NCBI GenBank assembly: GCA_016748015.1
Contig: JAAOMT010000430.1
Coordinates: 158,125 to 222,124, forward strand
Direction of reading: 5' to 3'
DNA from: Geosiphon pyriformis uo1
Lineage: Eukaryota > Fungi > Glomeromycota
Length of the DNA stretch: 64,000 bases
The first letter of the stretch is position 1. Each line of letters starts with the position of its first letter. The position numbers and the translations under genes are program-made. Under the pieces are notes generated by a model, which worked only from the letters and a program-made list of their open reading frames with translations, was not told where the DNA came from and did no database searches. Below, one piece after another: positions 24,453-54,515 of this stretch.

Positions 24453-27400
24453 TTATTTCTCTCTTTTAGAATTGAGCTTCTGTGAAATTATATGTATCTG
24501 TTCCTATGTCTTTGTTTGTGTAATGTTTGATGGTCATGTCGAGTATTGTTTTTCGTAGGTCTTCAAACTGTTAATTGGTTATTTGTCCTATGTTGTTAAC
24601 TATTATAGTCTTTATAGATCCATACAATAGTATATTTGAACAATGTTGGAAAGTAACATGTAATCAGTATGCTGCTTTATATATAGGATTAGGTTGCTTC
24701 TTTTTATGAATTTTTCTACTTGTTGCATTGTTTCTTTATTGAAAGTTTTTTGGCTAAAGTCTCTATATGGTATCTTTAAGTCTAATTGTTCACCTATTTT
24801 GTAGAACCAATAAGCTGGAAGAAGTCTTTCTTTCTATTCTTTTGCATTGTCTAGTGTCTATTCTTTTGTTTCAGGAAATCAATCCCATGAGATAAAACTT
24901 CTTTAATTTTTTTGAGCTCAGGGACCAAGTATTTTCTTTTATAAACTTTTTCTCATTCCTCCACTCTTTCTTCAAGCTCCACTCAAGACAATTTAATTTC
25001 TTTTTGTAAAATTCCTTTCTTGGGCAAAGTGTAGGGATAGAAATAGTTAGTTCTAGTTGAACTTACACCTATCTCTTTCTTGCTTCTATCTTTATAGCAT
25101 ATTTTTTTTCTATTGATTGTCACTTCTATTTGAGCAGAAGATTATTGAATTGTATCAAATAGTTGTTTCGAAAGTTGTAGAATTTAATCTGACAAGTTCA
25201 TGTTAAAAGTTCTATTATTTCTTGCTGTTTTTCAAATGCTATATATATTTGAATTTCCTAATTTAATTTGCTGCATGTTGTCTATGTTTTGATGATGATG
25301 ATTGGTCCCAGATCTTGTGGTATATCTTCTGGTCTGATTAATGAAATTTGTATTCTTAGTTGAAGTACTAATAATGATGATTTTTGTTTTACATGATAAA
25401 TTTTTAACCAATTTTCATGTATTACTTTCTTTAAAATCCTGTCTTCCAATCGTAATTTGTAAGCTCTATTTTCTAAAGCTTTGTGTATATGGAATAGACC
25501 ATTCTACTTTGGGTTGAACTTTTCATTCCACTGTTTCTTAGCTTTTGTACGATGTAATAATACTTGGTCTCCAATCTTAAATTTCATTGGTTGTTCTAGT
25601 AGGTAATTATTATGCCTTTCTTTTTGTTGTTCTTAAGTGTAACTAATATTGTCAGCTGCTGTTCTTTAATTGTTTTCCAATGTTTTTATTAGCTGATATG
25701 TTCTTTGGTGTAAAATAGCTTCAAAATTCTTTTTGTTGATTTTTTTGTTGAGTATGATGATATTACTTGTTCAATTGGTAACATAGTTTTTCTTTCATAG
25801 ACTAGTTTGAATGGTATAAACTGAGTCATATTTTGTTTTAATGTTTAGTATGCAAAGAGTACAAAAGATATGAATAAGTCCCATTTTTATTTGTTTTTAT
25901 GACTTATTTTTGCTAGTATTTCACACAGTGTTTGGTTAAATCATTCTACCAGTTTATTTATTTGTGGATGGTATGGTAATAATAAAAATCACTTTATTCT
26001 AAACTGTTGCTTAATTCAGTTAACATATTATTAACAAAATGTGTTCTCTAATCAGATAATAATTCTTTCAGGCATCCATGTCAGCAAATTAGGTCTTGAT
26101 GCACAAATTTGGCTATTGTTTTGGTGTTGGCCACTTGGATTGCTCTGGCTTTTAGCCATTTTGTAAGATAATCTATAGCTACAGCAATATAATGATTTCC
26201 TTTGGATATTATAAAGAAAGAACCAACCAAATTGATTCCAATTTTATCAAATAGATTTCCAACTGGAATGGGTTAAAGTGGTTCTATTGTTCTGGCTCCT
26301 TCTCTTCACTGACATAAATCATAATTAAGCACATATTCAAAAATGTCTTTGTACATTGTTGGCCAATAGTATAAATTTAGAGTTCTTTTAAGAGTGGCAT
26401 CTTTGTTAAAGTGTTTTGCAATTGGATCAGAATACATACTATGTAATATAGTTTCCTTTTCATTGTTTTTTATAACTCGTTGTGGGGTGGGGCAGTTTTA
26501 ATGTTTTTGTCGATATAGTTGATTGTCTTAAATAAAATAATTTCGGGCTTGTTTTCATATAGTACTTTGTTCCTATTGAAATAATATTTCCTTGAAACAT
26601 AGTGTCAATAAGTACTAATGTAGTCATTGATAAGTAAATGTGTCCATGGGTCTGGGATTAGTTTTGTGGTATTCTCAACAAACTGTTGGCATTGGTGTTC
26701 TTAGATTCTTCCTTGTAATAGACTTTAAGTGAAAATTGCTGCAGATAAGTATTTCATCTTGCATATTTTCCTTCCAGTTGTGGGTTATTGAGTAACCAGA
26801 TAAGTTCCTTATAATCTGTATATAGGTCAAATGGTTGACTGAGGTAGTGTTTTCACATTTGTACTGCCCAATAGATGGCGAGGCATTCTAGATCTATTGT
26901 GCTGTAGATTTTTTCAGCTGGATTTGTGCTATAACTAGCATATATAATTGGATGTTCCCTGTTGTCTGGTCTTATTTGCAACAAGACAGCTTCTAGTGTA
27001 TTCTTTGAGGCATCTGTAGTGACAATGAAATGTTTAGTGAAATTGGAGTAGATCAATATTGGAGATATAATTAATTACTGCTTAAGATAGTCAAAGGCTT
27101 TTTGTTGATCTTCTTTCCACAGATATGGCATGTATTTGGACAACAAGTGGTGAAAAAGTTTTGTAATAATTGAAAATATTTTGACGAATTGGCAGTAGTA
27201 TCCTGTCAAATTTAAAAATTCTCATAACTCTTAAAGATTGATTAGGGCTGAAAAATCTTTAACTTTTTAGACTTTGCTTGGATCAAATTTGACTCTGTTT
27301 TTGCTAATCACGTGTTCTAAGAATTTCAACTTGGTTTTTTCAAAGAAACATTTCTCAGGATTGAGTTTTAATCCAGCATTTTGAAGGTGTTCAAAAACTT

Positions 27401-29832
27401 ATTAAAGGTGGAGCAGATAATTGTTGAACATTTTAGAGAATACATTTGTGTTGTCTAAGTAAACTACAACTGATTTTCAAAGAATTTTTTTGTACATGAC
27501 ATCTATAAGATGTTAGAATATGGCAGGAGTATTGTAAAATCTGAAGAGTATTACATTAAACTTGAAGTTTGTGTCTTAAGTAGTAAATGCTGTTTTTTCT
27601 TTATCTTTAGGATCCATTTTGATCTGCCAATATTCGCTGGCTAGGTTTAATGACAAAAACTATTTTTTTTTTTCTGGATTGTTCAGAATTTTTTGGATGA
27701 GGGGAGTAAGATAACTATCTCCTCAGATGATGCTATTTAATTTTTAGTAATCCATACAGAATCGTATTTTTTCATTTTTTTTGGTAACCAAGACTACTGG
27801 GGAGGACTAAAGGCTTAACAATTTTTTGATTAAGCCATTTTCAAGCATTTGTTGAACTTCTTGTTTGATAAGATTGTCACCAGATGGAAATATTCAGTAA
27901 GTCTGTTGTTTAATAGATCGAGTGTCTCCCATATCAATCTGATGTTTCATAATGTTGGTGTGTCTGAACTTATTTTTGCTGGCAAAAACATCAGTGTATT
28001 GATTCAAGAGAACCTTGAGTTGCATTTGCTGTAGGGTACTTAAGTTCCTGAGATTCAATTTATTGATCTCTTCTGACATAAACAGATAACTTTCTTTTAG
28101 TAAGTTCTATACTTGTAAGGTAATATCACAAAATAAGAATAGCTGTGTAAAATCTGGAATGGGCTGGAGTTTTTTGGAATGTTGGATGTCTAGTGAAATA
28201 GAACCAATAAAGATCTTTTTGAGGATTTTAATTACATTTTCTGTGGAGTTGTGGATAGAGATTTTGAAGTGTTTATAGACTTTGGCTAATAGATATAAGT
28301 TAGCAACATTGACTAGAGAACAGATTTTAGGATTGGCTTCAAATAACAGGGCTTAATTTTGGATCTTTCAATTTATTTTGAGGATGTATTGTCAGTAAGT
28401 GGGGATAAAAATGACTGTGTCGGTGTAAATAAGTTTTACTTGATTACTATCTTCCTCTGTGAAGTTGATTGGTACATTTTCTCTTTTACTTGATTCAAAC
28501 CCATTGATTTTTTGGGCAGTGAGATCTAATTCTTCTTGGGTTGTTATTGAAATTAATTGGGATATTTTGATTAGGAGTAGAAAAATAGCTTGGGCAATTT
28601 TTTCTTGTGATTCTATTTTGTAGGGTTTGTTCAAATTGTTCTGTAATATCACTATAATGTTTTTTATATAACCAGCATTAATGATTTCTCTCTTTATGTC
28701 AATTTCTTTCTTGGTTAGACTAGATTGAGAGGCAACTTGTATCATTGTACTGACAGGAATTTCTAATGCTATCTTAAGATCTATTTTTACAAGGGAATGT
28801 GGAGCTATAATTATGAATGATTATCTGGAATATTGTAAGTCAAAACCAGCATCAGTATTATGCACTCTTTCAGGGCAGATTTTTTTCTCATTGTTACTAT
28901 ACTATTTTAATTCTAATTCTTTGGATAGGTCGGGATATGCGAGATACTGTTTTGTTTTAGTATCCTCAGTTGGATCTTGAAATGACATGTTTTCAATGAT
29001 TAATTCTTTTTCTACCTCAGGTTCTAGTAATTTGATGATATAGTTTTTATGAAGGTGGGTGGAACATGATATCGCATTTGTTGCAGTACTAAAAGTTACA
29101 AGAGATCAAACAATGATCACACAGTTTCATGTTTAGGTCAGCTAGCCTTTGTTTTTGCTCTTCTCTAGTTGGTGCCAGGTTCTGGTAGTGCTTATAGAAG
29201 TATTTTAGATTGTTTTTAATGTTGTCAAAAATGTTAAAAGTCATAATATATTCGAATTCTAAAAGAGATAAGGGATTGTTTTTGATTTCTAATAATTCTC
29301 TGATTGTAGCACTCTTTGCTTTCACACTTGCCATTCTCCAAATCTTATGTTCATTGTGGGGATACCCATCCAATTATCATAACACTTATTTTTAGGCATC
29401 ATCGATTGGAGTTCTTTTTTGTATCCAATTATTGATCAAGATGGTATATTGACATGCTTTGTCACATGTTTCTCCTTTGCCAAAAACATCATTCCATAGT
29501 CCTTCATCTGGCAGGATTTCACCACAGGCAAGGCATGGTATATTGTCTCATTTACCTTGTTATTTTGGTCTGCCAAATCTTTTTAACACACAAGATCTGC
29601 AGTAATGTTTGGTAGCAGTTGGCCATTCTTCGTTGTCTTTAATACATGTGCCCATAGAAGATAATTTTTTTCTACAGTTAACACAAATTAATTTTGGGGT
29701 TTGATATTATTGACTTCCTTGACTTGGGGCAGAATAATCTACAGGTGTTGATTGTAGTTTTTTTTCTGCTTTTCTCTTTTCCTTTTTTTTCCAAGTTGGT
29801 GTTGGGGGTAACTCTGTTTGGTAATCATCCAC

Positions 29833-30661
29833 TGTTACAGTTTAAGAATTTAGCAAAAAGAATCATAAAAATAATACAAACTATTCAATCATAATATAGC
29901 ACAGTAATAATCTTAGAAAGGTAATGATTAACATAATAGCAAACACCATCTCGCGATAGTGGCAAGCACCAGTTCACAATAGCAGCCAACACCAACTGGT
30001 GATAGCAGCAAGCACCAGGTTGAAATATTAAAAAGAAAGTATTTTCTCGTAGAACTACAAACATGTATATATACAGTAGTTTTAATATTGAGAAAGAATC
30101 AATCAAGTAATAAAAATCATAACTTATCAAGCAATAGATCCAAATTAAATATCCCAAGAAACTTTTAAAAATCAAAAAGAAATGAAAAAGAATATTTAAA
30201 ACGGAACTATCACAACCCAAAGTATTAAGAAACTTACTTGTATTATTTATTGAATGAAACTATCATTCATCAACTGAATCCCTTGGAAGAATAATCCTTG
30301 ATCAAGATTATTCATGTTGTTACTAATTGATAAAAGCTTTATTGTGAGAATTAGAAAAGCGCTAAAGACCATTAACATTCTGTGTTTCTAGATTAGAGAA
30401 ACACATCAGGCAATTGCAAGGATAGCCTCAGAGAAGACCCCAGACAGTGGGTAGATTTCAGTTCAGCCTCTGAGAAGGAGTACATAAACACACACAACAA
30501 TCAAGAATTAAAGAATAACTTACATCGCAACAGTAAAAAGAAAGCCTTCAGTGTAACAGTGACATTATCACACAAATAGAATTGAGGAACTCACGAAAGA
30601 CTGATTGCAATTAAAGCAGGATATCAGCAATTAAATATAACAAGAGAACCATCCCGTAACA
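29833..30661 (+). repeat. 5' LTR of element A
   Basis: TGTTAC..GTAACA; repeated at 39162-39250 and 39725-40515. Confidence 0.95.
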
Positions 30662-30663
30662 TT

Positions 30664-30680
30664 TGGTGAACCCTACGAGG
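30664..30680 (+). promoter_or_regulatory. Primer binding site of element A
   Basis: TGGTGAACCCTACGAGG lies 2 nt after the LTR end; TGG is complementary to tRNA CCA. Confidence 0.85.
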
Positions 30681-33600
30681 AAAGAAAATCAAAAAGGAAA
30701 TAATAATTAGCAATAATTCATTGCTAAAAAGGAAAGACAAAAGTGGCGACAAAAACCCCTAATCTTACTGTTCTTGAATTCTGCCGTGCTATTTACACAC
30801 AAAATCAAAGTGATCTTGGATTACCAGAAGGGTGTTGTCCAGCAGAATCTGCCCTTACTTATTATATCAACGCCAAAATAAATTATCATATAGGAAAGGA
30901 AGAAGAACCACACGACGCAAAACTTGGATTGTATAGAGAATTATCACAATACACTACAAAAGAAGTAGCAGTAATAGCCGCAACTATTATCAAAATCCAT
31001 CGAGAAATTGAGCAATACGCCAACAAAAATTTTCCAATATCCACAGGAAACACTAGGGAATGCGCCAACAAAACCAAAGAAAATTTAGAAACTAATCAGG
31101 AAAGTAACCAGCAAAAACTAGAAACACCAGCTCAAACGCTAAAGAAAACTGTCACTCAATCAATAAAGAAACAACATATTTATTCATCAGAAGATAAATC
31201 ATACCATTTTTCACCAGAAAATAAAATACAAATTCCATTAGGAGCTGCATCATTATCAACATCAACTCCACAAACGCTAAGAACTCCTAGTTATATTGAT
31301 AAAATTAAACAACGTAACTGGGGAGACATACCAATTACAGGAGGATATTCATCACTATTCCAAAACCCTCTTTTTCAGCCAAAATTTAGAATGGGGTTTG
31401 AAAACCGTGAAGAGGAGTCTGAATTAGAATCCGAAAAAGAGACCAGCGAAAAAACAATCACAAGACCAGTCACTAGAACAAGCAGCCAGTCCAAAAACCA
31501 AGAAACTCATGATCAAAAGGAAGAACCGGATATAAGGAAAGCCACCTTTAGGAATGCTCAAGGAAATATCATCCCACCTTCTCTTAGACCAATAAACCCA
31601 CCAGCAGAAAACGGCAATGAAATGACCACACCATACATTGCAAGACTAACAGATTTCTCAGGAGAGGAAGAAGAAACGGACGTGCACACATGGCTCAGAG
31701 AAGCACAAAAAGCCATCCAGGCAAATAACTGGAATGACCAAAGAGCAATTCAAACATTACCTTTCTTCCTGAAAGGCACAGCCGACTTGTGATATCAAAG
31801 CCTGGAAACAAAACCCACGAGCTTTACCAAATTTAAAAATGCACTCCTGGAGTATTTTAGCGACCCAAATGCCGTAATCCAACTACAGAACAAATTCAAT
31901 ACTATCAAGCAAAATACCGGTGAAACTGTCACCCAATACCTTGCTCGATTCAATCGAATTCGCTGTCAGATTGAAGCAATTGAACAAGGATACTACACTG
32001 ATTCTCAGGTTTTAAATCAGTTTATTAGAGGATTAAAAAGCAGCATTTTAGGAAGAGTACGCCCTGCCTACCCTAATTCCTTACCAGAAGCCGTTACGCT
32101 CGCCAGAGCCCTTGAATCAGCTGAGAAAGAAGCTAATCATAGTCAAATGGTTAACATGGTAATGGAGGAAAATAAGACAGAAACATTAGAGAAAAGAGTA
32201 ACACGATTAGGGGAAGAACTCTCTAAGAAAATAGAAAGTTACCTCATCCCGGATCCGAGAAAAAATACATACCAACCACCCCAAAGACACAGCCAGGAAG
32301 TCAGCAACAGTCGAAATAATCACTCGTCGTGCCAGGAATTCAGAACAGAAAAACACGCCTGCCATTTTTGCAAACGCGTAGGACATTTGATTAGTCAATG
32401 TCGAACGTGAATGATGCAGGAAGCACGCGAAAATAATTACTACGTGCCACCCCAAATGCCCAGAAACCAGTACACACCAATACCACGCCAATATCCCACC
32501 ACGTATCAAAATCAAGGAGCTTACCAGCAACAGCCCATGATAGCCAACCCGAATTGGCGTCCCGAGATCCAAAATCAGCCCATGTGGAACCAGAATGCGT
32601 TGGTCCAGAGGAATCCAAACCGCGCCGGAACCAATCAGCAAACCAATCCAAACTACCAAAATTATCAACAAACTTATCTTAATATACTGGAAAACCTGAT
32701 CATCGGAAACAATGATGGTAGAAACATAAACAGAACCAAGAATTCCTCCAAATTGAGCCAGACAATACCACCAGCAGTTGCCACTGAAGATAGCAGCCTC
32801 GCAGCTATTTTTTCTTTTGAATTAGAGGAAAACGAGGCTATGTTCAGTGGAGCAGCATTGGACGAAAAACGCCCAATCACTGCTATGTATACAGAAGCCA
32901 CTGTAAACAATACCCCAATCAAACTTATCTTAGACAGCGGATCCGCTGGAAGCATTATAACGCTTCAACTAGTAAACCAACTGGGTTTCAAAGTTGATCG
33001 TGCCACGACGTCCCAAATCATAACAGCCAATGGAAGTACAAAGCTGCCTTATGGCGAAATCGACTCATTCCCTTTCGAAATTAACGGCATAGTAATATCT
33101 ACAAAAGTATTAGTAATGGACGCTACACAATATCAAGCGTTAGTAGGGAATGACTGGTTAACAAAAGCCAACGCCACCCTAGACTGGACCACCCAAGAGC
33201 TTCTGATCAATTATAATGGCCACCAGGCCAAAATTCCAGCCACCTGTGGCCACTTCCAAAAACCCAGCGCCAACCAAAGACCTACCTTCGAATTTGAGGA
33301 AAATCCAGCACTACCAGTCATCGAAACCTATCAGCTCTCTTGGGCTGATGACCAAAGAACAGGACTACCAGCCATACCAATGTGGACCAGCGAAGAAAGA
33401 TCCAAATAGAACCAGGTAAGTTCACGAAGAAACCACCAGCGACGCAGACCAAAGCTAGAATGCTCGGTTTGCAAGAAGAAACTCTCGTCTATGACTGCGT
33501 GCAGCGCACCGGACGAAGACCCAAGAAACTCCACCCACTACTATTGTAACCGTTGTAACAAAGAAAAATACGGTTACCCAGAAAGACACGGAAAATGGGA

Positions 33601-34183
33601 CGAGGAACCGTGCCTCGCTTGTGGAGAACCATTACCAAGAGGGTGCGACTGGAACGACTTACCAGGCAGAGGAAGAACATGTGATGCAACTTGCCAATAC
33701 ACAATCCTCATCTGTAACTGGGTAAGAGGAGGAACGCTGTTCGAAGCAGCATTCAACAGAGCATTAAAAAGACTACAGCACTACCCACACGACGAGGACG
33801 AGTTGTACAACACCGCACAAGCCAAAGTAAGAGGAGGAACCGCCGAAGAAATATGACATTGGAAAGAGTCAGCCAAAGTAGCCGACAAAGTTGCCAGCTA
33901 CAACATGTTCGACCCAGTGGACGAATTCCAGGACTACTACCAATAACTATGCCCCACTCGACAAGAGCAAGAACAATACCTCGCCCAAATCAACACTTAC
34001 CTCTGCAAAAACTGTCTCATCCCGTGCCAAAGTCAGTGCTGTGAAGAGTGTCAAGACGAAAGGGACTTAGAAAGAAAAATGGAAATTGAGAATCAGCAGT
34101 CTCAAAATCAATCAATAAATCAACAAGACTCACCTGACGGTCCCGAGTCAGAAAAATTTGTAACCTATACTGACCTAGAATAG

Positions 34184-34625
34184 GTGACCGACATCCGATA
34201 CTTTGACAACGGGCACTTAGGAATAATACCCAAAAGAGTCCATCCAACCGACGCCGGATTCGATCTACATTATCCGGAAGACCAATCCACAACGTTACCA
34301 CCCAGGAGCATCACCAAAATCGACCTAAAAATAGCAGTTGAAATTCCGCCAGGAATAATGGTTCAAATGGCGTCGCGATCAAGCCTTGCGAAAAAAGGAA
34401 TAAGCATTCAAGGAGGAGTAATTGACTCCGGATACACTGGAAATTTGATGGTTTTGCTACAGAACAATTCAGAAAAGCCTTATACTATTGAATCTAAGGA
34501 AAAGATTGCACAAGCAATTTTCCTACTATTGGTAAAAATTGGGAAATTCGTGCCAGTAGAAAATCATGAGGAATTGTCACAAACAACGAAAGGAACTTTT
34601 GGTTTCGGATTGACAGGAAAAGGAA
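34184..34625 (+). other. dut: Trimeric dUTPase domain within pol of element A (also B ~28480-28860 and D ~50790-51215)
   Basis: All five dUTPase motifs are present in order: DAGFDL, SRSSLA, GVIDSGYTG, KIAQAI and (R>K)GTFGFGLTG. Confidence 0.92.
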
Positions 34626-35593
34626 TTGAAGCGAATTTCGCTGAAACAATAGAGGAAAAAGGTGAAGTAATTAAAAATGAGCGGTCCATCACGCTCCTAC
34701 CATATGGAAAATCAGAAATAAGAATAAAAAGTACAATTAAAGAAAAAGACCTAATATTTGAGCCCTACCCAAAAACTTGCCAACAGTTTCTCATAGGACT
34801 TACTAACCTTTTTATTCCAGCTGATAAAGCTCAATGGATAAAAATTCCTATTGCAAACACCACAGAAGAACCCGTCTACATTTCGGAAGATACCATCATT
34901 GGATACCTCGGAACGGAGCTAGAAAACGCGTCAACACCACAAGAAATTCTAAATTTCCCAGAAATCGCCCTCTACTGTGAACTCACTTCAATAAATTGGC
35001 AACAACCAGTAGAATGCTATCAATTTACGCCAGAAGAATTGGCCAAATTAAACATTGGAACAATGGATCCTGACCAACAGCGACAATTAAAAGCATTAAT
35101 TTTAAAATACTCTGATATATTTTCAAGAAATGGCGAATTTGAAAGAACCAACTTGGTTCAACACCAAATCCCCACTGGAGACGCCAGATCTGAAAAACAA
35201 CATGCTTACCATGTCCCACCAATGGAGCATAATTTTATCAGAGAAGAAGTCCAAAGCATGTTGGAAAAAGGAATAATACAACCATCAATGAGCCCATGGT
35301 CCTCACCAGTTGTTTTAGTAAGGAAAAAGAACGGAAAAATTAGATTTTGCGTCGACTATCGCAAACTAAACAGCAAAACAACCAAAGACTCATACCCAAT
35401 ACCGTTAATTGACGAAATCTTCGACGTTTTTGGAGGAGCAAAATGGTTTTCTACACTGGACTTGACCAGTGGGTACTGGCAAGTGGAAATGGACCCAAAG
35501 GACAGGCATAAAACAGCATTCACAACACAAAATAGCAATTATGAGTTCAATGTAATGCCATTTGGATTAACAANNNNNNNNNNNNNNNNNNNN

Positions 35594-36200
35594 CACCAGC
35601 GACGCAGACCAAAGCTAGAATGCTCGGTTTGCAAGAAGAAACTCTCGTCTATGACTGCGTGCAGCGCACCGGACGAAGACCCAAGAAACTCCACCCACTA
35701 CTATTGTAACCGTTGTAACAAAGAAAAATACGGTTACCCAGAAAGACACGGAAAATGGGACGAGGAACCGTGCCTCGCTTGTGGAGAACCATTACCAAGA
35801 GGGTGCGACTGGAACGACTTACCAGGCAGAGGAAGAACATGTGATGCAACTTGCCAATACACAATCCTCATCTGTAACTGGGTAAGAGGAGGAACGCTGT
35901 TCGAAGCAGCATTCAACAGAGCATTAAAAAGACTACAGCACTACCCACACGACGAGGACGAGTTGTACAACACCGCACAAGCCAAAGTAAGAGGAGGAAC
36001 CGCCGAAGAAATATGACATTGGAAAGAGTCAGCCAAAGTAGCCGACAAAGTTGCCAGCTACAACATGTTCGACCCAGTGGACGAATTCCAGGACTACTAC
36101 CAATAACTATGCCCCACTCGACAAGAGCAAGAACAATACCTCGCCCAAATCAACACTTACCTCTGCAAAAACTGTCTCATCCCGTGCCAAAGTCAGTGCT
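35594..36200 (+). repeat. Gap-flanked duplicate of 33434-34040 (assembly artefact occupying the place of the RT palm)
   Basis: Identical by eye and bounded by N runs on both sides. Confidence 0.85.
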
Positions 36201-36857
36201 NNNNNNNNNNNNNNNNNNNNTGAAAAATTTTCCAGTACCTCGAAACGTCTCAGAAGTTAGAAGCTTTTTAGGACTCGCATCTTACTACCGCCGCTTTGTA
36301 GAAAACTTTTCAAACATCGCCAAACCCCTTAATTACCTACTATCTAAAAATGTGAAGTTTGAATGGACTGAAGCACAACAAAAAGCTTTTGAGTACCTTA
36401 GACAAAAGCTCATTGAATCACCAATAATGATCTATCTGAATTTCAACAAGAAATTCATTTTGGCCACAGATGCCTCTGGAACTGGACTTGGAGCCATTCT
36501 GTCACAAAAAGATGATAATGGAAGAGAATGTGTAATCACTTATGCCAGCAGAAGTCTCAGTACAGCAGAACAAAACTACGCAGCACATGAGCTTGAATGC
36601 TTAGCAGTAGTCTGAAGTTGTGTTCACTTTGACACATATTTACGGTACCAACCCTTTAAGATTACGACAGATCATAGAGGTCTGGTCTGGTTAAATAACA
36701 AGAAAGCGCTAAAAGGAAAATACGCCAGATGGTCACAAACATTAGCACCATACGATTATATTATCAAATACAAAGAAGGTACCAAAAATGCTAATGCCGA
36801 CTGTTTGTTAAGAATGAGACACACATAAAAATCACCAACCCACCCGCCACAACAACA

Positions 36858-38024
36858 ATGAACAACCATCTTTACAAAAACCTCAGCCAATACTTGGAAA
36901 CACTACAAATAGACGAAAAAATGCCAGTAAAAGAGCTAATTAAGCTCCAAAAATTAGCAAAACACTATTTCATCCAAAATCACATACTTTATTACCGGAA
37001 TTGACAAAATCCAGATAATCCATTAAGAGTTATAACCACGAATGAAAAAGAAACTATCTTATTTAACATGCACTCAGATATTCATTCAGACCACTTTGGA
37101 AAAACAGCAACCATCCAATGTGCAACTAGTCATTACTATTGGCCAAAAATAAGTTCAGACATAATTCAATACATAAAAAATTGTGACCCATGCCAATGAA
37201 AAAGAGGAGCAAAAACAACGGAATTATTAAGACCAATAAAAGTTGAACAGCCATTTGACAGAATCGGAATTGATTTAGTTGGACCCTTACTAATAACAAC
37301 AAGAAACAACCGTTATATTGCAGTAGCCATGGACTATCTCACCAAATGGCCAGAAGCTAGAGCTATTAAAACAGCTGATGCTATTTCCGTAGCTCAATTC
37401 GTACATGAAGACTTAATTTGCCAACATAGATGTCCACAAGAATTGCTATCAGATCAAGGCACACACTTTGTAAACAGCACCTTAAAAGAACTTAGCCAAA
37501 AATTTGGAATCAAGCGACTACTGTCATCACCATACTACCCTCAAACAAATGGATTAGTTGAAAGATTTAATTGCACATTATGCGAATCACTGGTGAAAAT
37601 TAGTAACAAACATGAAAAAGAATGGGATTTGTTCATACCAGCAGTACTACTAGCATATAGAACAGTAAAACAAGATACTACACAATTCACACCGTTCGAA
37701 CTAGTTTATGGAAGAAAAGCTACATTACCCGTTGAACTTACTATTCCAATTTATCCGAGTGACACTATCACGGAAGCAACATTCCAGGAAACACTACTTA
37801 GAAGAACATATGAATTAATGGGAACTTTAGAAAACAAAAGAAGAAAAGCAGCACAAAATATTGAACAATCACAAGAACAACAAAAAGTGAGACATGATAA
37901 CCAGTTACCAGATAATATAATTAGCTACAAAATTGGAGATAAAGTATTGTTGCATCATACAAAAATGGAAAAACAGTGGAGTGGAAAATTTGATCACAAG
38001 TGGGATGGACCATTTTATATTCAC
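36858..38024 (+). pseudogene. Element A integrase, separate ATG-initiated ORF (C-terminal tail displaced to 39271-39371)
   Basis: H..H..CDPC zinc finger, GIDLVGP, LLSDQGTHF, QTNGLVERFN and KWDGPF, all in frame with ATG 36858. Confidence 0.9.
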
Positions 38025-38044
38025 NNNNNNNNNNNNNNNNNNNN

Positions 38045-38719
38045 AAGGAAAATACGCCAGATGGTCACAAACATTAGCACCATACGATTATATTATCAAA
38101 TACAAAGAAGGTACCAAAAATGCTAATGCCGACTGTTTGTTAAGAATGAGACACACATAAAAATCACCAACCCACCCGCCACAACAACAATGAACAACCA
38201 CCTTTACAAAAACCTCAGCCAATACTTGGAAACACTACAAATAGACGAAGAAATGCCAGTAAAAGAGCTAATTAAGCTCCAAAAATTAGCAAAACACTAT
38301 TTCATCCAAAATCACATACTTTATTACCGGAATTGACAAAATCCAGATAATCCATTAAGAGTTATAACTACGGATGAAAAAGAAACTATCTTATTTAACA
38401 TGCACTCAGATATTCATTCAGGCCACTTTGGAAAAACAGCAACCATCCAACGTGCAACTAGCCATTACTATTGGCCAAAAATGAGCTCAGACATAATCCA
38501 ATACATAAGAAATTGTGACCCATGCCAACGAAGAGGAGGAGCAAAAACAACGGAATTATTAAGACCAATAAAAGTTGGACAGTCATTTGACAGAATCGGA
38601 ATTGATTTAGTTGGACCCTTACCAATAACAACAAGAAACAACTGTTATATTGCAGTAGCCATGGACTATCTCACCAAATGGCCAGAAGCTAGAGCTATTA
38701 AAACAGCTGATGCTATTTC
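38045..38719 (+). repeat. Gap-flanked paralogous copy of 36713-37387 (RNase H end and integrase start)
   Basis: Colinear, differs by transitions and is bounded by N runs. Confidence 0.85.
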
Positions 38720-38739
38720 NNNNNNNNNNNNNNNNNNNN

Positions 38740-39704
38740 AATAAGTGAATTAACACCAGACACATTTAGCAACTTGAAAACGAAATTTCCAATTAATTAC
38801 TGTTATTATCAACTAGGAAAGCACTTGAACATACAAACATTATACTCAAAAGACTCAACTAGAGTGTTTGACAAAACAACTATCCAACTATTAGAACCTT
38901 TCATTGGAAAAACCAACACTACATTCCATTCAAAAACAGTTTACAGAATTTTCAAAGCATTTGAAAACTGTTACAAATTATTGTTGGACCCAACCATGAA
39001 CATAATAACAACCAACAGTATTGGACGACTTACCAACTCACAATTTCAAGAATTACAACAACAAATTAATAACACAGTATTGAACCACTATAGTAACTTA
39101 GAATTTAATGAAGAAATTAACTTCGATTTTGACGGAGCTCAATCTTGAAAGGAGGGGATAATGTTATGGTTTAAGAATTTAGCAAAAAGAATCATAAAAA
39201 TAATACAAACTATTCAATCATAATATAGCACAGTAATAATCTTAGAAAGGNNNNNNNNNNNNNNNNNNNNAAACACCCAGAATTGGAACACAATTACCTT
39301 TAATTCTACCAGAACAAATTCCATGAGATTTAGAACCAATAGTTTTAATTGAACATTATTCGAAAAGATAATTAATCTTAGATCACAGCAAAAATGATTT
39401 AACAACCATAAAAATGCATGCAAAAGATTCCAAAATAACAGTCAAAATTAAAACAATGATACTTATTCCAGAAAACATCAACAATATAACTCAACAATTA
39501 ATTGAAAGCTTACAACAATTAAAATCCGATCTAGAAATCACAGTTAATAGCTCCAAAATAACATACATAAAAAGAACAATAGAAAATCCAAAAACAAGAA
39601 AAGAACATAATTTCGAACCATATAATATTGCCAAATATAACACCAAATTTATTAGCAAAGTTATTGAAAAATTAGAGATAGCATTGGGCAATACATTAAT
39701 AATG
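38740..39704 (+). CDS. Element A ORF3 of unknown function; pieces mis-ordered by assembly (N-half 39456-39704, C-half 38740-39148)
   Basis: MILIPENINNITQQLIESLQQ...FPINYCYY...DFDGAQS*; homologous to ORF3 in B, C, D and G; both pieces are free of stops. Confidence 0.75.
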
Positions 39705-42700
39705 NNNNNNNNNNNNNNNNNNNNTAATCTTAGAAAGGTAATGATTAACATAGTAGCAAACACCATCTCGTGATAGTGGCAAGCACCAGTTCACAATAGC
39801 AGCCAACACCAACTGGTGATAGCAGCAAGCACCAGGTTGAAATATCAAAAAGAAAGTATTTTCTCATAGAACTACAAACATGTATATATACAGTAGTTTT
39901 AATATTGGGAAAGAATCAATCAAGTAATAAAAATCATAACTTATCAAGCAATAGATCCAATTTTATCCAACAAACTCCACTTTAAATCATACTTTCAAAT
40001 TAAATATCCCAAGAAACCTTTAAAATCAAAAAGAAATGAAAAAGAATATTTAAAACAAAACTATCACAACCCAAAGTATTAAGAAACTTACTTGTATTAT
40101 TTATTGAATGAAACTATAATTCATCAACTGAATCCCTTGGAAGAATAATCCTTGATCAAGATTATTCACGTTGTTACTAATTGATAAAAGCTTTATTGTG
40201 AGAATTAGAAAAGCACTAAAGACCATTAACATTCTGTGTTTCTAGATTAGAGAAACACATCAGGCAATTGCAAGAATAGCCTCAGAGAAGACCTCAGACA
40301 GTGGGTAGATTTCAGTTCAGCCTTTGAGAAGGAGTACATAAACACACACAACAATCAAGAATTAAAGAATAACTTACATCACAACAGTAAAAAGAAAGCC
40401 TTCAGTGTAACAGTGACATTATCACACAAATAGAATTGAGGAACTCACGAAAGACTGATTGCAATTAAAGCGGGATATCAGCAATTAAATATAACAAGAG
40501 AAACATCCCGTAACACCACCCATAAAACTTGATAGGTTTCTATGGTTGGTGATGATGTTGTGTCTTTAAATTTAATTAGTGGTTCCTCTGAGCTTTGGAC
40601 TTTAAAGTGTCCATATATAGCCAGAACTCAGACATATTATCCATTAAAGGTGATCTGTAATTCTTGTGTGTTCCAGTTAAAAATGGCATGAGCTTTGGCC
40701 AACCAGTTGTTTCTGATGAGAGCTTGATATTGCATGGCTTTCATGATTAGAATTTTTGTAAGAATTTGGGTTCTGTTGATTTCAAAAGAGAAGTTATCGA
40801 TTTCTCTGATTGGGGTTTTGGTATTGCCATCTGTAGTAATAATTCAGGTGGTTGTGGCATAATCTACTTGGTAATCTAATTAATCCATGAATTGTTTTGT
40901 TATTATACTGTCTGCTGATTTGCTATCAAGAATTAATTTAATGTCTATGTTTCTAACTTTAGTATTAGTATACAGGGCCATAATTGGTTTGTCCTAATTT
41001 ATGATGGCTCTATTGAAAAGGCTATTTGTATTCAGATTGTCAATGTTAAAGAGAAAGATAGCAGCAAAGATGGTATCTTTAGTGATAGTAGTGAGTAAAA
41101 TAGTATTGTTAGTTTGATTTCACCTTGAAAGATTGAAAGTTTCTTTTACAGCCTTTCTTTCTAAAGATATAGAGCTATAAAAATCCTGGTTTTTAATAAG
41201 ACCAAGATATAAGGCTTGGTTAGAGTATCTGGTTGGTGCTGGTTGAGATGAGACATTACTACAATTTAAAGATTGTGATAGTATACTGTTAGTTGGCATC
41301 TGATATTGCTGGAGTTCCTCCATCCTTGGTTGTAATTAATTGCCCAATGTCTAAGTTGGTTATTAACAGGGTTTTAGTACTGGAGTGTTGCTTGAGCCAT
41401 TGGCTACAATAATCGGTAATGGTTTTGAGGTGGTTGCTGGGTATACTGAATTTGTTGTGAGTATTGAAACAGTTAATATTAAAATGTAGAGTATTGGAAT
41501 ACCATGTTTTGAGAGTATCTCAGTTGCTAATATTGATTTTTTTGATTTTGGTCTATTACTTTCTTATGGCAGTTCCAGACAATATGTTCAGGTTTCTGAC
41601 AATAGTAACAATTGCAGAGATTGAATCTCTAAGGTTGTTGTTGTTGCTAATAATTTTGTTGTTGTTGGTATCTGTTGTTATTACTGTCTTTTTGTTGTGG
41701 TGGCTGGTAGGGTTCTATGGTACTGGCTAAAAATCTTTCAATTTTCTGAGTTAATTTCTTACTTAATTGAGTTATTTTTGTGTTGATATCAGATGTTCTA
41801 TTAATAGCCAGATTAACAGCTTGAGTATAATTAGCCTCTTGTTCTGCTGACTCAAAGTCACAAGCAAGAATAACTGCCTCTTGTAGATTTGTTGGATGGT
41901 AGAGTTTTACAGATTGGAGGAGGCTGCTCTTTAATCTTTTGACAAATTGATTAAGGATTTGCACCACAAAGTAGTAATCCCTTTTAATGGTCTGAATTTG
42001 ACAAAAAATTTGGTTGAATTATCCAAGATAAATGGTCACTGCTTTGTGATTTTTTTGTTTTATGATACTGAACTGATTTTGTAATCTGATGAGAGTGTTG
42101 AAATCACAAAAGTATTACAGAAAGGCAAGTTTAAAGGTGGCAAAGTCAGTTGATTTTTCTGCAAGGCTTTAATATCATGAGTCTATAATTCTAGTCAAAA
42201 AAAATAGCAATGCTTGAATGGCCCTATCATTATTCTAATTGTTGGTAATGATGGTTTTCTTGGCTTTTGCAATTCATATATATGCATTGTCTTCTTTACT
42301 AGAAAATTTTTCTAATTTGGCAATATCTTGGTAAGCCATAATCTGAAGGATAGATAGAGTCTTACTGTTTGATGCTGAAAGGTTTGGTGTTTGCATGCTA
42401 GGGTGTTTTTCTGGTGCTAATTCTGGTTGTTTCCTTTTGTTAATTTTCCCAATAGGCTGGAGAATAACTGGTTTCTCAGAGAGAGTAGTTGATAATTTGG
42501 TCAAGAGTTGGGTTGGTGGTGGTTCCCTCATCAACATATTTCTATCTGTTTTGTTAATTGTTGGGATGAGATTTCCAAACAACAATCCATATTCTTCTAA
42601 TGAGTTGGTCCAATTGTGTTGATTCTAGGAGTGTAGATTTTTAGGAGTTTGTGGTGTTTCTGACTGGGTTTTCAGAGATGGGTTGAATACCATTCTACTT

Positions 42701-43204
42701 TGAGGTGTCTGATGGTATAATAGAGTTGTTAGGGAGAGGAATTTTGGTTTCTTGTTAACCGTGGACTTGGCTTGGGCAGTTGCAGAGTTGTTAGATTCAT
42801 CTTTATATTCCTCAGGGTCAGATTTTACTGGTTGTTGTACTTGTAAGAATTGTTTTGCCACATAATAATTAATGTTTGTATCAATTATGTGCAAAGTTTC
42901 AGTAATTGTTTAGGTAGTTGTGGCTGTTGAGTACCCTAATAAGCTTTGATAGATTTGTTCTTCTAGTCTTTTTGTGTTGGTTGTATGGCCTATTAAGCAG
43001 TCAATTTTTGTGTTGATATAGTTACAAAAATCACTTTTTGCATAAGTGGTTTCTGCTGGTATTCCTAAGTCTTTTTGAAAGTATTGAAATAATGCTCTTC
43101 CATATGGGAAGTGGTCTTTTTCTACTGTTCCAATAGTTGCCACTTTTGTGAATTTCTGGGGTGTTTTGTCTCTATAGATTTATAACCTTATAGAAAGCAC
43201 TAAA

Positions 43205-44248
43205 TGTTACAGATAAACTTGGTGGGATAAGAAGATGGTAATGTTTAGTGCTCTCAATTATTAGTAAGGTGTGTTTCATGTAATTCTGGTGACTTAATCT
43301 TGATTATTAGTCTCTAAAGGTCTTTTTTTCTGGTTGTGAATTTACCTATTGAATTCTTTGGTTATAAGACACAGAGTTTTGGTTTTTATTAATTGCAACT
43401 TCTTATAAAGGTGAACTTTTTTCTCCAAGTTAACAAGCACAGTTATTATGGTCTGACATTGTCTTTTCACCCTTTTGGTAAGCTATCAAGATAATGTTAA
43501 TATCCAAAAACCTAGGAAAAGCTTCTTTTTTTTACCAGGCTATCATAAAGTCTATTCCCAAACAGTTGATTTTACTATATTGCTGCTCTACAAGAGAAAA
43601 ATAAAAGAAAGAAAAAGAAAATAAAAGAAAAGAAAGAAAATAAAAGAAAAAGATAAATTAGTATTGTCAATTACCATAATCAAGAGCAATTGATCTAAAT
43701 CATTAATAGTTTGAAGCAGTTATACTAAGAGCATTTGTTCTAGAATAAAGGTATGAAACAATGATTAATTCATGTAAATTTCACAAAGTTTGAGAACATA
43801 AATTTGTGATTTTGATTTCTTAATAATTGATTTATTTCAGAAAATGAATATGAAATATAATAAATAATGAAAGAGTATGAATATTTGATTCTTATTTAGT
43901 GGTTTATATTTATCTGTCCTGTCTTTTTCTATCTTCTACAACTACTTGCTTTTATACATTCTTTTGGTTTTACAGGATTGCTTTTGATTGTTTCATTATT
44001 GTTAACTATTGCTTTGTTTTTTCTGTTATTGCTTTATTTTTCTATATTATTACTAGTTATCTTATATTATAATACGTTATCTAATGTTATTATATGTTAT
44101 TCTGTATTATCCTACATTATAACGTATTATTTTGTGCTATCCTAAGTTATAATGTGTTATCCAATATTATTTTGTGCTATTCTGTGTTATGTTACATTCT
44201 GGTCATGTTTTTTTATAATTTCAGATCGGTTTTTTTATTCAGATAACA
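43205..44248 (-). repeat. 5' LTR of element B
   Basis: Direct repeat of 23409-24452, adjacent to the PBS. Confidence 0.93.
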
Positions 44249-45411: not shown

Positions 45412-46894
45412 TATTATAAGTAATTATTTGGGGTTTTAAAGCAAATAACAAATCCATAAATAACTAATATGGTTGGTATTATTTAAAGGTTTTGGTTATC
45501 TGAAGGTTTAAGTTGAGTTCTTTGTATAATAGACAGAAATCTTAATTGATAGTTTTATCCATAACTTTCTGAATCCACAGTTTTGTTGATTTTTTTCATA
45601 GTGTGATGACCAGTAATCCTCTTGGTAAGATATCTTCAATTCTAAGTATCTATTCTTATTTCTAAGTCTTTTACCAGTGCTATATCCTGACATTAGTACC
45701 TTTGCATGTAATTTTTTTAATCAAGTTAGCAAAAATAACAACAAAATAAAACAAGAAAAAAAAATAAAATAAAAAGTAAGCCAAGGCAATTTGCATGTTA
45801 GTATCCCATCAATAACCATGATTAAGAGCTATTGTTCTTGTGTAGTTAAGTATCAATTATTATCAACATAAAGTGTTAATAGTGGGGAATGGATTAAGAC
45901 ATTGAATAATTATTTATTGATATTTATGAATAGAAGAGTTGCTTAGATCAAATCTAAACTGAGAGGTCCCTCTTTTCTACTTTTAATACTACTGCTGTTA
46001 CTTATAGAAAAAGAAAACAGATATAGAAAAATAGTAAACCAATAAGAGAGTAGTAGTTAGCACATGAGTGTATTGCTCAGCAATGTGGAGCAATATCAGA
46101 AATCATGGCATATTGCTTAGCAATATAGAGCAATGTGGAGCAATGTCAAGAAAATATGGCACATTGCTCAGCAATGTGAGCATTGCTTGAAGAAATTATA
46201 GCACATTGCTTGAAAATGTGAGCAATCTCATAGAACCCAAATTATGTATATATAGTGGTAGCATTAGAAGTAGAAAAAACAAACCTCTCAGTTTAGATTT
46301 GATCTAAGCAACCTTCCATTCACAAATATCAATAAATAATTATTCACTATCTCAATCCACTCTCTACTATCAACACTTTATGTTGATAGTAATTGATACT
46401 TAATCACACTAGAACAATAGCTCTTGATTATGGCTATTGACAAAATACTAACTTGCAATTGCTTTTGTTTATTTCCTTATCTTCTTTTATTTTCTTTTAT
46501 TTCTTTTGTTATTTCTTTGGTTTTACTAAATTGATTAAAGATTAAGCACTGAGATACAGACTTCATAAGGACTGGTAAAAGACCCAGGAAACAAGGATAG
46601 AACACTTATGGATTTGAGGATAGCTTACCAGAAGGATTACTGGCCACCACACTGAGAAAAAAATTCGATGAAATTGCAATTCCAGGAGACTATTGAAACA
46701 ACTATTAAATTTCTGTTTATTATACAAAAAACTTCACAACAAAACCTTTAGATATTAACACCAGAATACCAACCAAGCACCAAGTTACAGATTTGTTATT
46801 TGACTTAAGACCCCAAATAATTATCTGTAATATTTGGTGCTCCCTGTAAGATATAATTTTACAGAGAACAGCACCAATCATAATCATTCAAACA

Positions 46895-49800
46895 GTGGCA
46901 GAATCTGAAGAAATAGGAACAAACCATTTAAGATTTGCAAAATCTTTATTCCAACATTATTATACTCATTTTGGATTAATAAATAATAGTTGGCTAACAG
47001 AATCAGCTTTCAATTGCTATGTCAATAAAAGAATAGTATATTACTTGGGAGGCCAAAGAGATCCAAAATCCGCCTTTAACAACTTTTTCAGTGAAATGCT
47101 CCAAAGCACCACCCTCCCACAAAACTACCTATTTGCACCCCTAATTACAGAAATAAACAGAGAAATTGAAAAATACACCAAACAGAGATTTTCTATCATG
47201 TTTGCCGACAAAGAAAAACAAAAGCTACAAACACCAGCAAGAACACCAAAGCAAATCCAACTACCCATTTGGAAGAAACAAAGATTTGATTTATCTGCTA
47301 ACCCATTATATCACTACACACCCGGAAGCACTATCAATATAATAAGCACAGTTACAACAAGTGCAACAACGCCATTAAACAGAATCCCATTTTAAAGTAA
47401 ACAAAAGAAAGCAGAGTTATTAGGAATATATGACAATTATTTTGAGGAATTTAAATCACGATTCCCAATGCCATCAGGAATTCAATTACTACCACCACAA
47501 CCAGATTTCAGAGCCATTAGTCCTTGAAAAATAACTGACTCTGAGGAAAAAGAGAGTAGTAATCAAGAAGTTAATAAGCAAAACCCAATTCTAGAAAATT
47601 CAGAAATTAAAACTCTGGTTAATCAAACTCCAGAAAATCAGAATAATCAAAACCCTGACATAATTAATCAACACTTATCTTCAGTAATCATGATCAATCC
47701 ACCACCAGCTCCACTAAATACCAAACAGCAACAACAGCCACAACTGCTACTTCAACAACAAATCTAGCAGCAACCACAACAACAACTAATGGCTTATATT
47801 CTAATTGCCAAAATCAAGAAATTTACTGGCAAAGAGGATAATGCCCAAGTATGACTCAATGATGTGGAAAAAGCCATTACAGCCAATGAATGGAACAATG
47901 ACAGAGCCCTTCAAGCAATCTCTTATTTTCTACAAAATATTGTTAACTTGTGGTATCAGAGTTTAGTTGTTAAACCCCAAACATTCCAGGAATTCAAAAC
48001 TGCATTCTTAAGATATTTCAGTAATAACAACACATTAATTGCTTAGCCAATACCTTCATCACAATTAAACAGGGAGAAACTGAAGCAGTTACTATTTACT
48101 TGGAATGTTTCCACAAGAACTTGCACCAAATTCAAGCAATCCAAGCTAACTATTTTACAGCACCACAGATTCTAAATTAGTTTATCTATGGACTGCGCAG
48201 TAGCCTACTCCAATGAGTATGCCCAATGTACTCACAAACTCTTCAAGATGCAGTCACCAATATGAGAGATTTTGAATTGGTAGAACTTGAAGCAAATCAT
48301 GCCCAAGCCGTTAATCTAGTAATGAATGGATCATCTGAACTGGATTCCAAATTAAAACAATTTGGTGATTCCATCAATCAGAAATTAGAGAGATATTTAG
48401 CTGACAATTGTGCAATTTATTAATCTCTTCAATAACACAATAATCAAGGAAACGCAAATTGTTTTCAGAATTAATTGTGCCTGTCAACATCATTTAATCA
48501 GCCATAGCAGCAAGAAATGCGTATCTACCACTATTGTGGTAAACAAAGACATCTGAGAATCAATTGTCAGTTAAGAATAGAAAACCAATGATTGAAAAAT
48601 CAATATCAAAACTCTGATCACAGGTTTCTAACTCCAAGTTATCAATTAAACTTAGCAGTATATCAACCAAATTACATATTTATGATGCAGCCGCAAATTT
48701 ATCAACTTCCAATTTATCAATCAACAACACCTGTCATCTATTAACTACAACCACAACCAATTTATCAGCTGTAGTCACAACTTATTTATCAGCCACAGCC
48801 TTAGGTAATTTATCAGCCCCAACAAAATCAAACACCACCACAAAACTTACCTCAAAGTAAAACTCAAAGACCAAGATTGACCCAACAGAGCTGGAGATTG
48901 TTGATGGTGGTCCATTAACTAATCTCCAGTTCCATGGCACAACCATCAGGATCTCAACAACAGAATTTGGGCACCGAATACACCCAAAACCCAAATTCCC
49001 AGAACTATTTAAGTCTCCTGGTTACTCCAAAAGATGCCCAATCCAATAATCTGGAAACCAACCAAAACAAATTACTTATCAGTAATATACCTCCAGCTGC
49101 CAGTACTGAAGACAAAACACTAGCTGCCATATTTCTTTTTGATTTCAATAAAATTACACCAGTCCCATTATTTAGTAGAGCCACTCTGGACACCAAACCA
49201 ATTATGGCCATGTATATCGATGCTAAAGTCAATGGCTACTCTATCAAGCTAATACTTAATAGTGAATCAGCAGACAGTATAATCACATGACAACTCATAG
49301 ACCAATTAGGTTGCCAAGTTAATCACACTGTCAGTACCAAAATTATCATGGCTGATAGAGCTATAAAGACTCCCATTGGTGAAATAGATAACTTCTTATT
49401 TGAAGTTAATGGTCTCATCATATCAATAAAAGTACTAGTCATGGAAGCCACCCAATACCAAGCTTTAGTTGGTAATAACTGGCTGTCCAAAACAAATATG
49501 CTGCTTGACTGGACCACCCAAGAGTTGCAAATCAGCCAAAACGGCCAACACATGCAAGTACCAGTCACATGTGGTTACTTCAAACCCATCACCACACCAT
49601 CAGCACCACTTATCAAATTTGAAAAAAAAAAGAGAAACCTACCTGGGAGGTATACCAAGTCTCTTGGGCCAATGCAGATCACAACGAGCTATTACTGATA
49701 CTCTCTTGAAATAACAAAGGAAAAAGGAAAAAAAACAAAGAACTTATCTAGAATACCAACCAAGTCTGGAAAACTGATAATGACCAGAACAAATCAGCAA

Positions 49801-53046: not shown

Positions 53047-53075
53047 AACATTTCAACTCAAAAATATAACAAAAA

Positions 53076-54456: not shown

Positions 54457-54515
54457 ATAACTAAAAGAGTATATAAAAACACAGTACATACAACAAAAGC
54501 AACCAAGAAAAAAAA

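Follow-up and report, generated by a model that had tools for sequence, protein, structure and literature searches.

Reviews of Ty3/Gypsy retrotransposons, in the portions available, treat integrase as part of Pol and place the break of two-ORF (open reading frame) forms after Gag or after Gag-protease (PMC3248453, PMC6317226, PMC5911963). dUTPase-bearing Gypsy elements are described in the accessible text for fungi, namely PosPlaTy3-5 of Postia, Phanerochaete elements and Tuber Tmt1 (PMC2864245), and elsewhere for planarian Burro and rotifer elements (PMC6431247, PMC5408684); a dUTPase between protease (PR) and reverse transcriptase (RT) has already been published (PMC2864245, PMC6431247). 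Ginger1 transposases are ~400-aa Gypsy-integrase-like proteins according to the available part of their description (PMC2836005). Long terminal repeat (LTR) elements account for ~41% of the Geosiphon genome (PMC11952901, in part), and a description of their structure was not found in the accessible portions of the literature.

Here we analysed a 64,000-nt stretch of Geosiphon pyriformis uo1 (contig JAAOMT010000430.1, positions 158,125 to 222,124), referred to as the window, which holds the LTR elements A, B and D. These elements are a variant of Ty3/Gypsy with a split integrase, encoded apart from the polyprotein that ends with RNase H. In the standard view integrase enters the particle within Gag-Pol; a lineage making integrase separately needs other means of dosing and packaging.

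The stop between RNase H and integrase

Element A comprises the following features, listed by position and including the pieces displaced by scaffolding:
29833..30661, plus strand: 5' LTR, TG..CA; CCAC target duplication at 29829-29832 and 40516-40519
30664..30677, plus strand: TGG-initial primer-binding site
30743..35572, plus strand: first part of ORF1, one frame with predicted GTG start and six decay stops; in order, Gag N-terminal domain, capsid, zinc knuckle, protease, Cys-rich domain, dUTPase, spacer and N-terminal half of RT
31628-32128, plus strand: capsid, in ORF1
32882-33247, plus strand: protease, in ORF1
33443..34060, plus strand: Cys-rich orphan domain between protease and dUTPase, with five CxxC, predicted zinc binding and no fold match
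34193..34618, plus strand: dUTPase domain (PF00692, E 1e-24)
35594..36200, plus strand: assembly artefact flanked by N gaps, 100% identical to 33434-34040
36221..36828, plus strand: RT connection and RNase H, with conserved stop at 36826-36828
36829..36857, plus strand: 29-nt A/C-rich spacer, no ATG, no AG, weakly structured
36858..38024, plus strand: free-standing integrase ORF with its own ATG, HHCC, D-D-35-E and GP(F/Y) motif; two decay stops
38045..38719, plus strand: 97% copy of 36713-37387 between N gaps, with the same RNase H stop and an integrase ATG at 38190; probably a sibling copy scaffolded in
38740..39148, plus strand: C-terminal part of ORF3, in frame with the N-terminal part (222 aa)
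39147..39158, plus strand: polypurine tract
39162..40515, plus strand: 3' LTR, divided into 39162-39250 and 39725-40515; identity with the 5' LTR 97.7% across 753 columns
39271-39371, plus strand: C-terminal piece of integrase, misplaced
39456..39704, plus strand: N-terminal part of ORF3, misordered by scaffolding

For elements B and D the corresponding features are:
45996..56032, plus strand: element B, complete and heavily decayed; CTGC target duplication, LTRs 91.1% identical
46895, 53046, 53076 and 54516, plus strand: GTG, end of RNase H stop, integrase ATG and ORF3 ATG of element B
23409..44248, minus strand: element D, interrupted by A; LTRs 86.7% identical
43143, 26658, 26647 and 25201, minus strand: GTG, end of RNase H stop, integrase ATG and ORF3 ATG of element D

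A sequence-only reading of this DNA had assigned one layout to the three elements, and a GTG-Gag-PR-Cys-rich-dUTPase-RT-RNase H frame followed by a stop, integrase and an extra 3' ORF (ORF3) was indeed read in A, B and D, with Pfam matches in the order PF19259, PF03732, PF13975, PF00078, PF17919, PF17921 and PF00665. At least three unrelated LTR types, as proposed, carry this layout, since no substantial BLASTN match was found between the types of A, of B and its kin, and of D. The odd internal order of A is a scaffolding error in which two blocks occur twice, the middle of RT is absent and one piece is misplaced: the element contains five 20-N gaps, and the integrase end and ORF3 start (39271-39704) are placed after the ORF3 end. 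A contig of sequencing run X1 joins 39704 to 38740 via 11 letters, which makes ORF3 one 222-codon frame. A scaffolding artefact of the same kind lies elsewhere in the window, where 1835-2361 and 2382-2908 are 100% duplicates across a 20-N gap. From GTG 30743 onward, Gag through RT is a single frame in A, as had been claimed, and its six in-frame stops are decay. Homologues that are at least 60% identical have W, R, W, Q/R, Q and Q at these positions, and at the stop at 31792 an X1 contig reads G, giving Trp; none of them therefore looks like a programmed Gag/Pol signal.

RNase H ends four residues past the motif NA(N)xLLR in A, in the second A-type copy, in B and in D, the stop being TAA in A, B and D. 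The integrase ATG follows this stop after 29 nt in A, 29 nt in the second A-type copy, 29 nt in B and 10 nt in D, at an offset of -1 in A, -1 in B and +1 in D. The same stop with a downstream ATG in all three elements bears out the earlier suggestion that the ORF break has moved to the RNase H/integrase boundary.

Relatives of the free integrase were sought with the integrase of A among candidates of 213-681 aa only, yielding 821 matches, 120 of which were listed. Because this length limit excluded fused forms, genomic context weighs more than the count of Met starts. The listed relatives are mostly 400-450 aa long; 118 of the 120 have a Met start, in 102 of the 120 the start lies at most three residues from that of reference P0270 (BLAST offset), and 23 of 24 aligned N-termini coincide at column 1. 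Named relatives with a free integrase belong to Rhizophagus, and Entrophospora fragments fall in one cluster. Among the top 22 of 80 metagenome loci, all ten that include both RNase H and an integrase start are split, and their ORFs are open; loci further down the ranking are fused or integrase-first, the layout labels of the remaining loci having been assigned by script. In addition, eight ORF1 proteins from databases have their C-terminus no more than a few residues away from the RNase H motif D[AST]LSR.

An RT-RNase H tree was built from 118 rows, of which 80 are fused, 13 split, 12 integrase-first and 8 RNase H-terminal, the other 5 being of other kinds. All 13 split loci group with the 8 RNase H-terminal proteins and P0033 in a single branch (SH-aLRT 99) that contains no fused sequence; integrase-first loci lie outside it, and several sister-group placements of the branch are possible. 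An integrase tree of 92 rows, for which 21 of the 120 free matches and every second fused protein were used, unites all 37 free integrases, including four named Rhizophagus sequences, in one branch (SH-aLRT 95). Its sister rows resemble what we take to be plant Athila-type elements; Athila/Tat (OTA) elements are non-chromoviruses, and Tat is marked by an additional RNase H of archaeal type. The integrase ends shortly past the GP(F/Y) region, and, in agreement with the sequence-only reading, no chromodomain was found in the integrase pieces of A or in the Pfam lists of the 120 listed relatives. The split integrase is thus a lineage trait, the real hallmark of the lineage, and the single branch in both trees, with relatives including Rhizophagus and Entrophospora, supports an old, diversified, non-chromovirus Ty3/Gypsy lineage with an ORF break between RNase H and integrase, as the age and diversity ascribed to the clade had implied.

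Two other accounts of the split are already largely refuted. Decay and mis-assembly of an ordinary one-ORF Gypsy could be suspected in copies riddled with C>T/G>A stops and in the scaffold patchwork of A; however, the stop position is identical in three divergent families, the intact loci L001, L003 and L008 show the same split with open ORFs, and one branch emerges in both trees, which leaves this account hardly credible. The location of the ORF between RNase H and polypurine tract within paired LTRs, which in A and B are flanked by a 4-bp target duplication, and the selection of the same loci by the RT and integrase trees render it exceedingly improbable that the free integrases are Ginger-like DNA transposases lying beside integrase-less retroelements, although Ginger1 transposases are Gypsy-integrase-like proteins of similar size, ~400 aa (PMC2836005, available part), and databases label these ORFs 'DDE-type integrase/transposase'.

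Junction sequences and the proposed expression of integrase

The spacers at ten junction loci measure 62, 365, 89, 163, 30, -8, 727, 74, 521 and 110 nt and represent all three frames, which makes a single recoding signal unlikely. A programmed frameshift or readthrough joining RNase H to integrase, by which a Pol fusion would still be made, could draw on the -1 offset of two window spacers and several loci and on L010, which is in frame with a single stop. We consider it highly improbable, as offsets span all three frames from -8 to 727 nt with D at +1, Met1 is kept in 118 of the 120 listed relatives, and the integrase frame of A is open for only ~15 codons upstream of its ATG. The window spacers are short, ATG-free, A/C-rich and weakly folded, and for this reason would suit post-termination reinitiation. 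Stop-restart translation is used by victoriviruses and by SART1 and L1 retrotransposons, and foamy viruses express Pol separately. Our favoured reading, held with somewhat better than even confidence, is that of a split-integrase polyprotein and an own-ATG integrase in a lineage of Glomeromycotina-type fungi, the integrase of the window elements being likely made by restart 10-29 bases past the stop.

Under this reading, ORF1 of the Geosiphon sub-lineage would start at a weak GUG, and a conserved Met before the capsid domain might serve as an additional start or mark a cleavage point. As no Gag/Pol frameshift intervenes, RT would be made 1:1 with Gag and the integrase dose would be set at the RNase H/integrase junction, by reinitiation in short-spacer members and, in many long-spacer relatives, by a conserved bulged hairpin beside the AUG that may control initiation. 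Integrase would then enter the particle in trans. The dUTPase may limit uracil in cDNA, a role assumed for other elements in the available part of PMC2864245, and the Cys-rich domain and ORF3 would act as accessory proteins, most likely nucleic-acid- or protein-binding regulators, with ORF3 not an envelope protein. A stop-restart arrangement is also seen at a second junction, where the ORF3 ATG overlaps the integrase stop (L005:1488-1491).

The bulged hairpin is common to eight loci and ends at most ~15 nt from the integrase AUG, with an 11-nt purine-rich bulge in seven of the eight and a single bulged A in all of them. In the alignment 93% of cells are paired and 8 of 14 pairs show two-sided changes, slid controls pair at 24-41%, and none of 500 shuffles reached the covariation score. 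The hairpin model recovered the held-out locus L021 in the same place (51 bits) with a further two-sided change, so that nine of 26 clade loci contain it: L001 (4465-4500), L004, L005, L006, L007, L009, L011, L019 and L021 (11-72). No copy was detected in 57 other loci, the hairpin pattern had 0 matches in viral contigs, and an Rfam scan of seven loci returned no family at the hairpin and one chance-level match elsewhere (E 4.6).

Several points weigh against the favoured reading. The hairpin structure was drawn from eight related sequences, its small 2-bp inner helix is devoid of covariation, and three of four single copies fold no better than shuffles. It is not in the window (best 10 bits, E 2.4). 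A search of 26 clade loci gave no copy in 17, several of them lacking the upstream region, and among the ten junction loci it is present only in L001. Four of the ten spacers hold ATGs (1, 7, 8 and 12), and as three of these are 365-727 nt long, simple reinitiation cannot serve them. Run X1 gives no cover at 36259-37329, where RNase H and integrase meet, and hardly covers B or D. The trees were quick ones, with SH-aLRT as their sole support measure and a query-biased sample that included no named reference elements, and the GUG start of ORF1 is predicted from its conservation.

The long spacers with many ATGs (L002, L013, L016) favour the main rival, a route in which integrase, together with ORF3, comes from a subgenomic mRNA generated by splicing, an internal promoter or RNA cleavage, with the hairpin as part of that step. 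Foamy-virus Pol is made by splicing. T-rich runs and an AG immediately 5' of the hairpin in L001, L005, L006, L007, L009 and L019 and a CAG within the spacer of D would fit, as would the ORF3s of other LTR elements, which typically derive from spliced messages (PMC5408684, available part). However, the A and B spacers contain no AG, nor does L011 at that place, and no GT..AG sense joints occur among the 15 and 3 joints listed, the junction being uncovered in run X1. The sense strands of the A, B and D internal regions (23 kb) consist of 38-42% A, and donor-like GT[AG]AG is depleted on them (11 seen vs 23.8 +/- 4.6 expected), which leans against splicing. Altogether, we judge a subgenomic source rather unlikely.

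Family A is also associated with RNA of the opposite strand:
30573..34988, minus strand: span of the family A antisense RNA, which is multiply spliced (GT..AG introns, 68-220 nt) and lacks a long ORF

This RNA is known from contigs of one run only, X1, which was flagged as possibly DNA. Over A the contigs show at least 15 joints; among those listed 11 are CT..AC and a twelfth is CT..AC after a one-base shift, and on the minus strand these correspond to introns of that GT..AG type and length (68-220 nt), to which one skip of 3.4 kb is added. Because 74 of the 84 differences between contigs and window are T>C or A>G, we infer that spliced antisense RNA arises from a less mutated sibling copy of family A. 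The RNA overlaps gag-pol. Its lack of a long ORF and the chance-level frequency of antisense donor motifs (37 seen vs 37.5 expected) make cryptic splicing of a U-rich strand the simplest reading. A coding antisense gene in this copy was rejected, as no stretch without a stop in the joined exons exceeds 111 aa, with one exon boundary imprecise.

More tentatively, and on the whole with doubt, the elements may represent an undescribed Glomeromycotina-wide clade with a tricistronic RNA, from which integrase would be translated alone, under the control of a new cis-acting RNA element of ~45 nt at the AUG in one sub-clade and by stop-restart elsewhere, and packaged in trans; ORF3, as a new all-helical family, would act as a trans regulator, and the Geosiphon branch, which would make up a large part of its genome, would have added the GUG, a new zinc-binding domain and the dUTPase.

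Accessory domains, ORF3 and the GTG start

The Cys-rich domain of A has 18 Cys in 212 aa, and its conserved CxxC pairs suggest that it binds zinc. Among 1.84 billion representatives it found 178 matches; eight of the ten looked up are from Geosiphon. The domain sits between protease and dUTPase wherever neighbours are visible, a few chimeric gene models excepted, and P0001 contains an unbroken PR-Cys-dUTPase-RT frame. A model of the domain (pLDDT 75, pTM 0.56) had no BFVD or PDB match at E <= 0.001 (best VIA Z 4.7), and in the ESM Atlas it scored only 0.77; a missing fold match for this or the ORF3 models is no proof of a new fold. The PR-RT interval is visible in 13 other members of the clade; none of these contains the Cys-rich domain, and three contain a dUTPase, one of them after RNase H. 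The spacer that follows the dUTPase was considered as a degenerate second dUTPase and rejected, as it gave neither an alignment nor a Pfam match. In L001 and L013, ORF1 runs past RNase H by 314 aa (3497-4441) and 586 aa (4945-6705), respectively, with different Cys/His-containing orphan extensions, and P0033 has a dUTPase past RNase H. Both flanks of RT-RNase H thus gather accessory domains.

ORF3 homologues in A, B, D and two partial elements of the window confirm the extra 3' ORF of the sequence-only reading. In the clade, a ~145-aa ORF3 family with 20 database matches follows integrase in seven loci and is absent in four (L002, L012, L017, L025). ORF3 matched no Pfam family, Env or movement protein; it has no transmembrane segment, the best 19-residue hydropathy being at most 1.37 in all rows. 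The clade ORF3 model (pLDDT 91.5, all-helical, predicted soluble) had a best Z of 5.0 and no BFVD match. A closterovirus coat protein, the first ESM Atlas match (0.94, 152 shared features, single cluster), was dismissed since Pfam and fold searches gave no support. Homology of A's ORF3 to the ~145-aa helical family is plausible as a remote likeness: it was the best of 642 window chunks searched with the clade profile (E 0.001). Counting against this link, the reverse search ranks unrelated chunks equally, and hhalign of A's ORF3 with the clade family gave a probability of 2% (E 0.024). ORF3 is an optional orphan helical protein and not Env.

GTG-GC occurs at the Gag start in all five window elements with a visible leader, across three LTR types. 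Element A contains no ATG in any frame before 31060 and none in frame before 31391, and as decay is read as C>T/G>A, an ATG cannot become GTG. In L001, L003, L006 and P0048 the Gag start is apparently ATG, not GTG, and L010 retains a Gag/Pol frame change. The combination of GUG, Cys-rich domain and dUTPase is mainly a feature of the Geosiphon branch. With Cys-rich domain, dUTPase, ORF3 and Gag start all varying among relatives, the accessory set proposed at the outset is not supported as a fixed one.

Decay of the window and comparison with known systems

The window is a nest of decayed elements that ends in TTAGGG-type repeats (56 copies at 63664-63999), so the element cluster is subtelomeric. 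A is nested inside D, which in turn appears to interrupt a LINE-like element with RRM and RT matches, and B is nested in the 3' LTR of a deletion derivative of its own type. The B-type remnants are:
45414..62169, minus strand: B-type deletion derivative, with LTR, GTG 61256, Gag-PR-Cys and then directly ORF3 (56904 to ~56356)
2088..5619: B-type fragments; on the minus strand LTR end, GTG 3795 and Gag, on the plus strand integrase end, ORF3 and LTR start

The derivative is devoid of dUTPase, RT, RNase H and most of integrase, and its 3' LTR is split by the insertion of B. LTR differences within pairs (for A, B and D at the identities given above) are nearly all transitions, almost only C/T and G/A, and CpG in B and D is at 0.14-0.17 of expectation; the direction of decay was taken from the X1 contigs. 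This spectrum and the CpG depletion fit methylation-driven decay, and high CG methylation of transposable elements (TEs) is reported for R. irregularis in the available part of bioRxiv 2021.03.30.436303. The 4-bp target-site duplication claimed for the group stands for A (CCAC) and B (CTGC), whereas the flanks of D differ (TCAC vs TTGT), which is compatible with alteration of one 4-mer by C>T/G>A decay. The RT active site in B and D reads YLDN, not YLDD, consistent with independent CpG decay of the same codon.

Decayed LINE-like elements with RRM/RT/RNase H matches occupy 18587-23410 and 44249-45413 (minus strand), 17-1936 (plus strand) and 12069-13888. The sole long open frame outside the elements is an intact 555-aa ORF at 7899-9566 (plus strand) with weak fungal protein-kinase and weak HSDR_N-like matches. 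No tRNA genes were found in the window. Among named proteins, the best matches are gene models of Geosiphon pyriformis, whose identity to parts of the query reaches 91-94%; among viral contigs, three of 52 candidates are related, all weakly and partially.

The combination of features had been thought undescribed. This stands for the RNase H/integrase split, of which no description was found in a literature search that had Repbase and most subscription papers outside its range, and which goes unmentioned in the accessible portions of PMC2774666, PMC5408684, PMC5751038, PMC11952901 and PMC2836005; it does not stand for the dUTPase between PR and RT or for 3' extra ORFs, each of which is in print in the sources available. 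The TE libraries supplementing PMC11952901 could already include these families. New here are the hairpin and the spliced antisense RNA of family A, and the hairpin and the two orphan protein families, Cys-rich and ORF3, are concrete new test objects. Since Rhizophagus irregularis has intact free-integrase ORFs, the question of dosing and packaging is directly testable there. In annotations, free integrase ORFs go under the name of transposases, and they could be miscounted by a survey that, in its available part, uses the rve domain as a Ginger marker (PMC5751038).

With canonical Ty3/Gypsy elements, as far as the available reviews describe them, the window elements share paired TG..CA LTRs, primer-binding site, polypurine tract, target duplication, Ty3-type capsid and H2C2/DDE integrase, and the domain order Gag-PR-RT-RNase H-integrase with Ty3-type domains is present; integrase as the C-terminal part of a Pol polyprotein is not. 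In canonical two-ORF forms, including Ogre with its spliced intron, the same partial sources place the break after Gag or Gag-PR, whereas here it lies between RNase H and integrase. dUTPase-bearing Gypsy elements carry the dUTPase in Pol as here, some between PR and RT, and the rotifer ones add diverse ORF3s; the available text on them mentions neither a split integrase nor a Cys-rich domain of this family. Unlike the known 3' ORFs of such elements, ORF3 here has no Env, GDSL or DEDDy match. Ginger1 and the YPYY-type Gypsy integrases near Athila/Tat are likewise ~400-aa proteins with an N-terminal Tyr-rich helix, H2C2, DDE and GPY/F (PMC2836005, available part), but the terminal inverted repeats, lone transposase and missing RT of Ginger1 contrast with an integrase that lies inside LTR elements, downstream of RT-RNase H.

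The likeness to complex retroviruses or pararetroviruses drawn by the sequence-only reading is reduced to an analogy: ORF3 has no transmembrane segment, Env or movement-protein match, and a 3' ORF with a signal peptide or transmembrane Env, as in Env-bearing Ty3/Gypsy elements and retroviruses, was not found, while LTRs and a D-D-35-E integrase, both wanting in Caulimoviridae, are kept. In Gmr1-like elements integrase presumably lies upstream of RT, whereas here it is downstream of RNase H. Foamy viruses, victoriviruses, SART1 and L1 offer parallels, either in an enzyme that is produced separately from Gag and enters the particle in trans or in reinitiation near a stop; in those systems, however, the whole Pol or another ORF is separate, and here it is integrase alone.

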